DNA from: Takakia lepidozioides
Lineage: Eukaryota > Plantae > Bryophyta
Assembly (NCBI GenBank): GCA_030704615.1
Contig: CM060734.1
Location: 54,002,001 to 54,066,000, forward strand
Direction of reading: 5' to 3'
Length of the DNA stretch: 64,000 nt
The translations under genes were made by a program, and so were the position numbers. Below, in pieces: positions 48,301 to 51,400 of the stretch. Numbering within the stretch: position 1 is the first letter of the stretch; each line of letters opens with the position of its first letter. Under the pieces are notes generated by a model, which saw nothing but the letters and a program-made list of their open reading frames with translations, searched no databases and was not told where the DNA came from.

Positions 48301-48495
48301 GATCTCTTGACCCTTCAGTGCTCCCAAGTCCTTCAAACTGAAGGCAAAGCAATTCCTGTAAGCCCTCAGGAACCGCCGTATACGTCGTCTCTCTCCTCCG
48401 GTGACAATGGGTCCAATGTCAGGCTCCCAATTGTCCTCCGTAACTACAACCTTAAGTCCAGTGGGCTTAGAGGTAGAGGACGCGTCCCGTGGTTG
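45361..48495 (-). CDS. Pol: RT, RNase H, integrase and C-terminal PHD finger; in frame with the upstream ORF after a single TAG
   Basis: [72 protein letters not shown] (45504-45370). Open from 48495. Confidence 0.95.
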   Translation of the reverse strand, partial: QPRDASSTSKPTGLKVVVTEDNWEPDIGPIVTGGERRRIRRFLRAYRNCFAFSLKDLGALKGQEIRIELATDTPIFRRPYRYSDMERSLIQMRTQDLWEAGLVELSGGEYASATVMPAKKDVYGNWTERRMCGDYRPVNRQTKSDKYAMPTPEEIFDAIGHAKAFSTLDLRSGYHQLPIKEADKQKTAFWGINEHGKDCLYQWRFLPFGLKNAPAEFQRVMDRILAGVDFARCYIDDIIIFSVTMEEHERHLQVVLERLRAHGLKLHPGKCKFFHNQIEYLGHMIYPGGLGVQQTKVEAIAQIPRPTDVSRVRAFMGLANYYRRFVKGFSTIAKALTKLTKVDQEWQWEDEQERAFQELKARLTSAPILRRPIRGRPFQLHTDWSMLGLGAVLTQVDDEGREFVVAYASRSNNAAEAKYSSYEGECLAAVWAVAHFRCYLYGNLFTLVTDHQPLKWLMESDKLTGKLARWALILQEYDFQVVHRPGLVNRDADGLSRNPCMSQQDDTGARWHGETDEEMVPGWHASAFLCILASGGQIGPTTGMTVDGVSEDPEASDELGGARDIHEDSAVLDYLRTGDTAAIVTARERDRILQRAKRFKWEGIHLLRVWEGGRVRIVPHPTQRARLVRHAHEELGHFGVRRTHSLLQGQYWWRGMHTEVQQFVARCMVCDRVRASFNAPTPQLHPLPIMGLGYRWSLDFAGPLPLTMRHHRYVLVMVEHFSKWIELVPLPDKASEGAAYAFLDRVLSRFGAPAEVLTDQGREFLGEFQALCDKALIDHRTTSRDHPEADGLAERVVQTVKRGLRKYGLQKGHLGDWDLQVPWLAMGYRFSKQASLASFSPYFLLFGREPDLPAAIRRDTAQVLNLDDPDVWVRACDQRAELFKKVMPMAFENLAIAQHRDTLRYATIRGGGYRPGVRRFSPGDYVYLQQTAPTTLDVTAGRVILRVREVLPSGVLILEGRDGMTWKDHVRNCAPCHLPNVDGRVDPNLAVVPAGLRCMLCGSAKGAATMLVCDRCSRGWHMGCLTPPLEKVPDGDWLCPHCLG

Positions 48496-51400
48496 CTATG
48501 CTGCAACCTCTTGAGCAGTACTCCCTACCTGCTCAGTCAATGACAAGGCCTCATCCTGCCCCATCATCTCATCCTTGAGGACCTCCTCAACTCGAGAAGA
48601 ATCCCCAACCTCATCCATCACAGCCGCCTTGGCTGCCAACTCCCTCTGAACCTCGAGCACCTCCCACGTGTGCCATGGATGCATGCACCCCGTGGTCCTC
48701 ATATGCTCGCCCCCACTCACTGCCTGTACCGTCTCGGTAGGCAGAGAGACCATTGAGGGAAGTGTATTCCGCACTCTGCGTTGCTCAGCTAGAGCCAAGC
48801 TGATAATCCAGGTCAAGCAATTGAGATCCATTGCTTGCCCCAACACTTGACGACGTGATGCCTCAGAAAGAGACGACACCGCCGTGGTACCAGTGGTAAA
48901 ACCCATTGCCCGCTCACGCTCGTCAGCATTAGGCTCCACTAACTGCTGCAACTGAGCATCCCACAGGAGGCCAGGTCCACTATCCCGGAAAGCATGCGAT
49001 CCTGGGAAGCTGAGCAGTGTAGGTAATGCTGCTCGTGGTTGACCCACCTTGTTGACCACTGCCAAAGGCGAACGGTCATCGTGTCTCACACGTTGAGACT
49101 GCCTCCCTGTGTCCAGAATGTTATCCACTGTGAGATGTGCTGGCCGCTGCACCCCATCAAATGCACGCTTGAGCAGTGCGGGTGGCATCATGTTAGTCCA
49201 CCATAGCCGTGGACGATGAGCCCGTGACCCCACTGTAGCTGCATCTAGCAACACTGCTGACCCAAGCCACGACCGGACTTGATGCACACTGGCCATCACC
49301 CTGGCCCGAGAATCGCCCATCAGTGGCACATTCTCCAAGATGTATGCTGGAGATACAGCTTGATGAAGCTGCAAGTGGCGCAAAACCCGCACCATCTCCC
49401 AAAACAGACCCGACCTCGAGTCTCGCAATCCATTGCCATGCCCGGCTGATGAATGCCCTTGGCAGGGCCAACCTGCCACTACCAGATCAATGGAGCCAAC
49501 CCGCTCCAAATCCTGCGCCCCCAGCAACGAAATGTCTGCTGGCAAGGCCTGCTGATATCCACGAATTGCAGACACCGACAACAACTCAGGGTACCGCTGC
49601 ACCAACTGAGCAACATGGCGAAGTGAAACGCGTCGTGCAGTCTCATCCCTCTCCACATACAGGTAACGCCGAACTCGTACACCTGCCTGTAACACAGCAG
49701 CCAATCCGGTGCTGATCCCGCCAAACAAGTCCAGAAGACAAATGCCTTCATCCGGAGACTGCCACACAATAGGTGTGGTGTCCAATGGAGACAATTGAGG
49801 TGGTCCTGGTGCAATCCCCACACTCTCCTCCTCTCCTGACGGTACAAAAGCCTCCACCCAGGCTTGTTGCACCCGTCGATCAGCATCCCGCTGCAAATCC
49901 TTGCTCGTGCCCCACAATGGAGTCTGAGCAACCATGGTAGGCAACTCCGCCATACCATACATGTCATCCTGCTCTCCCGGAGGTGGTACATCCTCTGAAT
50001 GAGCATTGCCCTCAAGCAACTCTCTAGGCCAACTCACTGCCGCTGTGAATGCTGCTAGTGTCGGCATCTTGCCTCGCTGGGCAACCGCAACTCCTCCTAT
50101 GAACGTCACAGGGAGCTGCACACGCCGGCCCTCCCCTGACTGCCATGCAGGCCTATAGGAAGCTGACTCCTCCCAAAAATCCAGGGTGAAGCCCATGGGG
50201 TACAACACTGCCCCACCAACCAGGACATCGTATGAGACTGCGTCTGTCACAATGGCCTTGGCTCGCATCACTGAGCCATCTGTAGGGTGATCCGGCCGTA
50301 GTCTGATAGCCAACTCATGCCGTGTCATGCCCCGAGCCTGCTCCGATCCTCCCAGAGACGTCTGTATCTGGAAAGGACAAGGCTCCATATCCGCCTCCGT
50401 GAGGCCCAAGCCTGCAATAGCAGCTCTGCCCAGCATCAGTGGCTGAGCTCCCGAGTCCAACAAGACTCGCAGTGGCCGGTACCTCTTGCCTGCCGGTCCA
50501 CTCAAACAGAAAATGCCATCCTGGTTGTCTAACATGACAACTCCAGGTGTCACCATGGCGCGCTCAATGGCTGGCCTAGCTGGCAGCTCCATCAACCTGG
50601 CAGCTGCAGCTTGCCATGGCGCCGCCGTGGCAGTCTTGACCCTCAAATCCGAGGATCCCTCCGGCACTACACCTCCCACTATCTCCGCAGAAGATGAAGT
50701 AACCTCCCCACTCTCACAGAGTGTAGCTGCCAGCCTGAACACCTCAGCTGGTCTTATCCCCGGCGTCGCAATCATGGTAGCCGAGAACAATGGAGCCTGG
50801 CACACAGATGTGGCCGCTCCTAGCAGCACACTAGCTGCCGTAGCCTTGGCAACACTAGGTAGTGGTGCTACCCGTGTAGCTCTCCCCAATGGCATAGTAA
50901 CCTCCGCCTCGGTAACAGTCGGGCGAGAACTAGGTGCCATGGATGGCGTCGACACTGTCTCCGCCAATGTGAATGACTGAGGAAGCCTAGCCTGACGGCT
51001 TGCCTCCCCACGCTGTGGATCCAACTCCACCTCTGCACCTCGTGGCTCAGGAACTCGTGCTGCTCCTCGAGTCACGGCTGCAGCAGACTCCACCTGCACT
51101 AGTGGTAGTGCTGCTCCACACATGAATCCCATGCCTCCCATATCTCCTCCCTCAGGAGCAGGAGGTGGACCATCCGGCCTTAGAGCCGGTACCACCTGAG
51201 CTGTAGCCATGGCAGCGAGCCTCTGCTCTAGCTGCTGAAGCCGGTTGGCCATGCCTTGGTCAACACCCTGACCTCCGCGTCCTTGGCCACGTTGAGCTTG
51301 CCCTTGGCCTGCACCTCGTGGCTGGCCACCTCGTCCTCTCTGGGCTGCTCCACCTCGCCCCCGGCCACCATTGTTCCCTTGGAACTGGCCTGGGCGCAAC

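Follow-up and report, generated by a model that had tools for sequence, protein, structure and literature searches.

Introduction

Ty3/Gypsy retrotransposons that carry a DNA methyltransferase (DNMT) have been described in Klebsormidium nitens. KnitGypsy-Dnmt3 has the repeat layout A-ORF-B-A-B (ORF, open reading frame), a Dnmt3 domain, and the DNMT in the Pol frame together with the reverse transcriptase (RT) (PMC5890265). Methylation of the cDNA was proposed as the role of the enzyme (PMC5890265, 2018). The words 'readthrough', 'PHD' and 'Marchantia' do not occur in the main text of that paper, nor do 'stop codon' and 'readthrough' in the main text of a preprint on streptophyte Gypsy-DNMT3 elements (10.64898/2026.05.21.726589). 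In plant viruses, tobamoviruses carry xxA-UAG-CAA-UUA-xxG at their leaky stop (PMC3159437), and the readthrough consensus following the stop is CAR YYA (PMC2754532). Here we describe a Gypsy-Dnmt3 element in a stretch of 64,000 nucleotides (nt) of Takakia lepidozioides (contig CM060734.1, positions 54,002,001 to 54,066,000; hereafter the window, whose own numbering is used), in which an in-frame amber codon is placed between the methyltransferase and RT. The element type and readthrough in retroelements are both already known. A literature search returned no report of readthrough, a stop, its context or a stem in DNMT-bearing retrotransposons, the search not covering Havecker and Voytas 2003 and Gao et al. 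2003.

Results

A single amber codon separates the Gag-PR-Dnmt3 and Pol frames

The minus strand reads GCA TAG CAA CCA CGG at 48501-48487. The TAG (48498-48496) is the single in-frame stop between the frame for Gag, protease (PR) and Dnmt3 (ORF1) and the frame for RT, RNase H (RH), integrase (IN) and a PHD domain (ORF2). The frame that ends at the TAG has 1043 codons (48496-51627, minus strand) and contains a zinc knuckle, the DSG motif of the protease and the C5 methyltransferase. The downstream frame (45361-48495, minus strand) continues in the same frame with 1044 open codons for RT, RNase H, integrase and PHD. A sequence-only reading of this locus had noted the ending GCA TAG CAA CCA and the open frame beyond it, without stating the strand, and both are confirmed. 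It had also counted 53 sense codons into RT. The same-frame continuation stands, and the figure is loose: counted from the stop, the conserved RT-proximal sequence begins at codon 23 (WEP), FSLK lies at codon 52, the first Met/ATG at codon 85, and Pfam RVT_1 at codon 129.

The position of the motif should be noted. The nine-nucleotide pattern TRRCARYYA, which also admits TGG, is not rare (24 matches in the window versus 21.3 expected), and the motif therefore draws its weight from where it lies. CARYYA follows 11 of the 5114 stop trinucleotides in the window (0.2%); on the coding strand of the element it follows one of 219, namely the TAG at 48498. The xxA-UAG-CAR-YYA-xxG context is complete in the window copy. 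The retroelement SIRE1 reportedly uses CARYYA.

The stop and its context are retained in five families

The gag region of the window copy is disrupted by two frame changes, near 52300 and 51500, which the earlier reading had overlooked. Chance decay of the TAG was thus a real possibility and was tested first. In run X2, which may be the source sample, the complete variant table for 48400-48580 (1732 contigs, 24 variant rows, 1% threshold, contig depth not being copy number) has no row at 48490-48500, and the neighbouring positions 48488, 48501 and 48502 do vary. The motif is intact in one spanning contig each from runs X6 and X12, which come from two other studies. Run X13, which bears another organism label, also covers the stop; its 14 differences include 4 that are unlisted and could fall there.

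A metagenome scan gave 50 loci, among which L031-L060 are the 30 with DNMT before RT, L061-L072 carry the DNMT behind RNase H, and L073-L080 were uninformative and dropped. The junction is covered in 26 of these 30 loci, and a stop is present in all 26. L033 reads GCA TAG CAA CCA GTG and L050 reads ACG TAG TAG CCA AGG. A moss-associated family, which groups with Sphagnum proteins, has TAG/TAA CAA CCC ATG in 24 of 24 loci (16 TAG, 8 TAA), several of these loci being re-assemblies of one insertion; the junction was located by an anchor that does not assume a stop. A scan of prokaryote genomes returned one contig, L111, which reads AAG TAG CAA TCA CCG. L111 is unbroken, with one Gag-PR-DNMT frame, the stop, and then 1047 Pol codons, and it falls in the sister group of protein P0016, which shares about 52% identity with the window in the DNMT region. 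From its content we infer that L111 is a eukaryotic retroelement. The whole contig is plant-type, though filed in a cyanobacterial genome bin with its Pol (P0181) annotated as cyanobacterial; this filing is probably contamination. Scans of IMG/VR gave either low-identity methyltransferase matches on phage contigs only (30 loci each) or none.

All five families have A at +2, C at +5 and G at +9, whereas the amino acid at codon +3 differs (R, V, M, R and P). Pairwise identity among the families is 6-9 of 9 in the motif, compared with 7-17 of 30 in the 30-nt flanks. UAG-CAR-YYA is complete in the window, L033 and L111, with one mismatch each in the moss-associated family and L050. The TCA in place of CCA in L111 changes Pro to Ser and preserves YYA. 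The context is thus conserved at the nucleotide level past what the protein needs, as seen in the CCA/TCA exchange and in +9 G amid differing amino acids. The stop is not decay but is retained at the same place in five divergent families; judging from the X6 and X12 contigs, the five families and the unbroken L111, it is not a private mutation. Conservation of TAG-CARYYA across copies had been proposed as a check in the sequence-only reading, and the context is kept across the families, including the change that preserves YYA; a sense codon at this place, its stated counterexample if found in most copies, occurs in none of the DNA-level copies of the stop-bearing clade.

Relatives with and without the stop

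Proteins of Marchantia, Calypogeia and several metagenome families end 85-164 residues past the last DNMT motif, among them P0228 (1319 residues) and four Marchantia proteins (1280-1281 residues), which end 98-100 residues past it. Stand-alone Pol proteins of about 1040 residues are known for Marchantia, Calypogeia and metagenome groups. A search for longer proteins gave 19, with DNMT before RT in one frame in six (P0072-P0077, 42-48% identity) and DNMT after RNase H or before integrase in the other 13. In P0072-P0077, DNMT reads straight into RT in one open frame. Since these distant relatives do so without a stop, fused DNMT-RT proteins occur naturally.

A quick tree of 89 DNMT domains contains a group of 42 rows (SH-aLRT 96). 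Six of these rows have the stop in DNA, 31 are proteins ending after DNMT, and 5 are gene models passing over the junction; the evidence on the 31 is their protein end only, and several end early. The open-frame forms fall outside this group. The tree, which is unrooted, is compatible with a single gain of the stop. A second architecture, in which an open Pol frame carries the DNMT after RNase H and before integrase, forms its own group in the same tree (L061-L071; P0042, P0044-P0048, P0050-P0051, P0078-P0089).

Pol is likely to be reached by readthrough

Codons 23-85 of ORF2 are under purifying selection in comparisons with the other families (nonsynonymous pN about 0.18, synonymous pS 0.58-0.78). 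These codons are therefore translated, which argues against initiation at the ATG of codon 85. We consider it probable, at roughly 0.8, that the in-frame amber stop is a programmed readthrough site that lowers RT and integrase while the methyltransferase is kept at the level of Gag. Most ribosomes would end at the UAG and release Gag-PR-DNMT, and the CAR-YY(A)-xxG context, together with the stem described below, would allow decoding by a near-cognate tRNA a few per cent of the time, which would give the full polyprotein. The protease and the methyltransferase would then be made at the Gag level and enter the particle with Gag, RT and integrase would stay scarce, and the new cDNA would be open to methylation by the enzyme in the particle. 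We infer readthrough from viral precedent and, further, the protein ratio and the loading of particles. The sequence-only reading had taken Gag-PR-DNMT for the abundant product and RT-RH-IN-PHD for the minor one, and this interpretation is supported. Relatives with a single frame would already make DNMT and Gag at 1:1. The origin of the stop is therefore more likely to lie in a reduction of RT and integrase than in an increase of DNMT, and this is probably what it evolved for. A bolder and only tentative extension is that a whole clade of plant Gypsy-Dnmt3 elements, with distant relatives in one open frame, gained a hybrid signal behind the captured Dnmt3, made up of a tobamovirus-type context and a long stem of alphavirus type, and that an enzyme at capsid level fully methylates the cDNA before integration, such that new copies would arrive already marked.

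A stem is predicted downstream of the stop

A stem is predicted in all five families. Its 5' arm begins 11-15 nt past the stop and its 3' arm covers the codons around a conserved Glu where RT begins; about 50-70 nt lie between the two. The best partner of the 5' arm within 1.5 kb is the homologous site in five of seven sequences, and this site is second or third best in the other two, compared with 7 of 129 control positions. Synonymous shuffles match the arm duplex in 3, 14, 4, 1, 2, 13 and 1 of 300 cases for the respective sequences. When the sequences are anchored on the Glu codon, 10 of the 15 columns paired in at least three of the five families change on both sides, each family having been folded separately, with bulges that shift. 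With L111 left out, a nine-row alignment has pairing in 93% of its cells and two-sided changes in 4 of its 21 pairs, six of the rows being near-copies and the structure being derived from the rows themselves. In L111, a GC-rich arm replaces the pyrimidine arm to give an 18-pair stem (-32 kcal/mol) of different sequence. The sequence-only reading had called the signal one of the tobacco mosaic virus type. The UAG-CAR-YYA context agrees with this, but the signal is probably not purely of that type, given the predicted extended 3' stem and the CAA CCC ATG of one family.

Observations that weigh against readthrough

Several observations weigh against the readthrough interpretation. By themselves, nine invariant bases in a single family are not significant (with about 16% of positions variable, the chance is about 0.2), and differences less than 31 nt from a contig end are apparently unlisted in the variant tables. 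The gag of the window copy is broken. The moss-associated family has C at +6 (CAA CCC) and ATG at codon 3, L050 has two consecutive stops, and the -1 A is missing in L050, L111 and many copies of the moss-associated family. The second stop of L050 is read here as candidate decay of a CAG codon, and the moss-associated family may depend on a weaker context or reach Pol by a second route. In L033, a strong candidate for an in-frame intron spans the stop. A stop plus structure from Tca2 gave no readthrough in a yeast reporter (PMC2194720). Folding of the whole region is mostly ordinary, with 16-82 of 300 synonymous shuffles as stable and z from +0.85 to -2.9 (z -2.1 in a separate calculation), and the 3' arm sits on conserved codons. 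The predicted stem accordingly rests on the complementarity of the arms and on the folds of the individual families.

Other routes to Pol

The main rival is partial splicing as in Ogre (PMC6317226), in which an intron over the stop would be removed in some transcripts with the pyrimidine tract as its acceptor; we regard this as unlikely. A pyrimidine tract with AG at +31 to +33 does occur in three families, yet L111 lacks the tract and keeps the pairing. L033 has a 69-nt in-frame candidate (AAG|GTAAGG) that beats 30 of 30 controls, and the window has a 63-nt in-frame candidate; against these, L033 is the one of six sequences in which a donor and acceptor flanking the stop stand above controls. 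The other five are ordinary on a crude consensus score, controls being as good in 15 of 43, 24 of 43, 27 of 43, 18 of 21 and 21 of 43 cases. The T of the window donor is altered in about 74% of the X2 depth, and the acceptor phases differ (0, 1 and 2). Five NCBI gene models (P0006, P0009, P0011, P0014, P0039) omit the junction, but they join at five different points, and one possible RNA contig (X12) is unspliced. Splicing would also leave CAR-YYA-xxG unexplained.

Somewhat less likely still is separate synthesis of Pol, through reinitiation, initiation at an internal site or a shorter transcript, with the stop as the plain end of ORF1. Tca2 has a junction promoter (PMC2194720), the moss-associated family has an ATG two codons past the stop, and in several relatives gene callers put a GTG or ATG start close to where ORF2 begins. 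None of the window, L033 (first Met at 48) and L111 has the early ATG of the moss-associated family; the window has no in-frame ATG before codon 85, which lies beyond 62 codons under purifying selection. Moreover, a Pol made separately would need no shared frame and no leaky context. It is very improbable that the TAG is a random nonsense mutation in a decaying copy or an error of the assembly, to which the two gag breaks and the scattered stops in many moss-family loci might point. Unless the loci concerned are artefacts in their turn, this reading is refuted by the stop at the same place in five families, in contigs from two other studies and in the unbroken L111.

Organization of the element and its surroundings

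The element occupies about 44404-56758 with the repeat order A-ORFs-B-A-B (Table 1). The A repeats (330 nt) are 100% identical, and the B repeats (about 180 nt) are 94% identical. CCCCC on both outer flanks is a possible target duplication of low complexity. The order PR-RT-RH-IN with a DDE integrase, as in Ty3/Gypsy elements, is found in the window element. The Dnmt3-like domain is intronless, with the catalytic motifs FGG, PCQ, ENV and R-x-R all found, and the closest solved structures to its profile are DNMT3A/3B (E 9e-22). The nearest named proteins are from Calypogeia, Marchantia and Sphagnum (about 60-77% identity), in keeping with a bryophyte host. Gag-PR-DNMT is one frame in P0228, P0248 and L111. 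The gag breaks of the window copy, present despite the identical A repeats, reflect either a young non-autonomous copy or assembly errors. One of five loci examined has both repeats, L052 (1676-1975, 10238-10805), and it also has the A-ORF-B-A-B layout. DIRS-like split repeats beside a DDE integrase and a purine tract before B1 make the replication and integration of such ends puzzling.

Table 1. Features of the element in window coordinates
Feature	Position	Strand	Evidence or remark
Repeat A1, 5' end of the element	56429..56758	-	100% identical to 44582-44911 over 330 nt
Tandem array, about 10-nt units, about 1.5 kb, 5' leader	53390..54937	-	repeat families D1 and D3
gag, first piece; frame change near 52300	52282..52599	-	tblastn with unbroken relatives P0228, P0248
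gag, second piece, first zinc knuckle; frame change near 51500	51470..52309	-	PF03732 weak, E 0.0018; tblastn
Rest of ORF1: second zinc knuckle, protease, Dnmt3-like C5 methyltransferase, linker, TAG	48496..51627	-	domain matches
Protease motif LLDSGAQP	50463-50440	-	
Dnmt3-like C5 methyltransferase	about 49737-48826	-	PF00145, E 2e-12
Stop and context GCA TAG CAA CCA CGG (xxA-UAG-CAR-YYA-xxG)	48487..48501	-	sequence; conserved across families
Predicted 5' arm (+12 to +26)	48470..48484	-	pairing at probabilities of 0.98-1.00, one bulged base aside
Predicted inner hairpin enclosed by the stem	48399..48440	-	
Predicted 3' arm (+98 to +113), on G-G-E-R-R-R codons	48383..48398	-	
ORF2: RT, RNase H, integrase, PHD; first ATG at codon 85	45361..48495	-	
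Repeat B1, purine tract before it	44913..45102	-	94% to 44404-44581
Repeat A2	44582..44911	-	matches A1
Repeat B2, 3' end of the element	44404..44581	-	

Just outside A1, an inverted fragment of the same DNMT region lies at 56774-57217 (plus strand; 91% identity over 383 nt) and stops about 85 nt before the equivalent of the junction stop. Elsewhere in the window, a second, ordinary Ty3/Gypsy element occupies 36221-43211 (plus strand), with long terminal repeats 97% identical and a frame change near 39600, and pentatricopeptide repeat genes with an E motif, duplicated and inverted, are found at 1-746, 4686-6695 and about 22900-25700.

Discussion

If readthrough takes place at this stop, the element has a conserved recoding site after the protease and a captured enzyme and not after gag, a position unreported for retroelements in the literature examined. 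It would then become testable why retrotransposons carry DNA methyltransferases: an enzyme at the Gag level should be abundant in particles and should leave unintegrated cDNA methylated, and the model liverwort Marchantia polymorpha harbours relatives. The annotation of Marchantia elements as separate or oddly spliced genes would be explained as well.

The closest described element, KnitGypsy-Dnmt3, shares with the window element the Gypsy domains, a Dnmt3-like enzyme ahead of RT, and DIRS-like repeats, and its protein P0062 is homologous. As described, however, its DNMT shares an ORF with RT, whereas a conserved stop lies between the two in the window element, which is therefore a variant and not the described Gypsy-Dnmt3 form.

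Among retroelements, one in-frame stop sets the ratio of upstream to downstream proteins, as is proposed here, in murine leukaemia virus (MuLV), Tca2, Tj1, SIRE1 and RIRE2 (PMC2194720, PMC4600332, PMC2754532), and in Tj1 the in-frame stop can be required (PMC4600332). In the accounts available, the stop of MuLV, Tca2 and Tj1 ends gag with the protease downstream, and that of SIRE1 lies between pol and env, while in the window element the protease and the captured enzyme are upstream. Ogre removes a spliced spacer of about 274 bp (PMC6317226); the window element has a single codon in an otherwise open frame.

Compared with viral signals, the motif is that of type I (tobamo-, beny- and pomoviruses; UAG-CAR-YYA; PMC3159437, PMC2754532), with +9 G in the window, L033 and L111 and -1 A in the window and L033. 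Tobamoviruses are described as having no extended 3' structure (PMC3159437), whereas one is predicted here, in a retrotransposon and in all five families. This predicted stem resembles those of alphaviruses and of tobra-, peclu- and furoviruses (PMC3159437) in having at least 10-12 pairs, a spacer of 8-12 nt, a long loop and a span of about 100-150 nt. Those stems go with UGA-CGG or UGA-CUA (type II), while the stem here follows a type I context, a combination tentatively noted for a benyvirus (PMC3159437). If borne out, the junction would thus join two readthrough stimulators that are classed apart in plant viruses.

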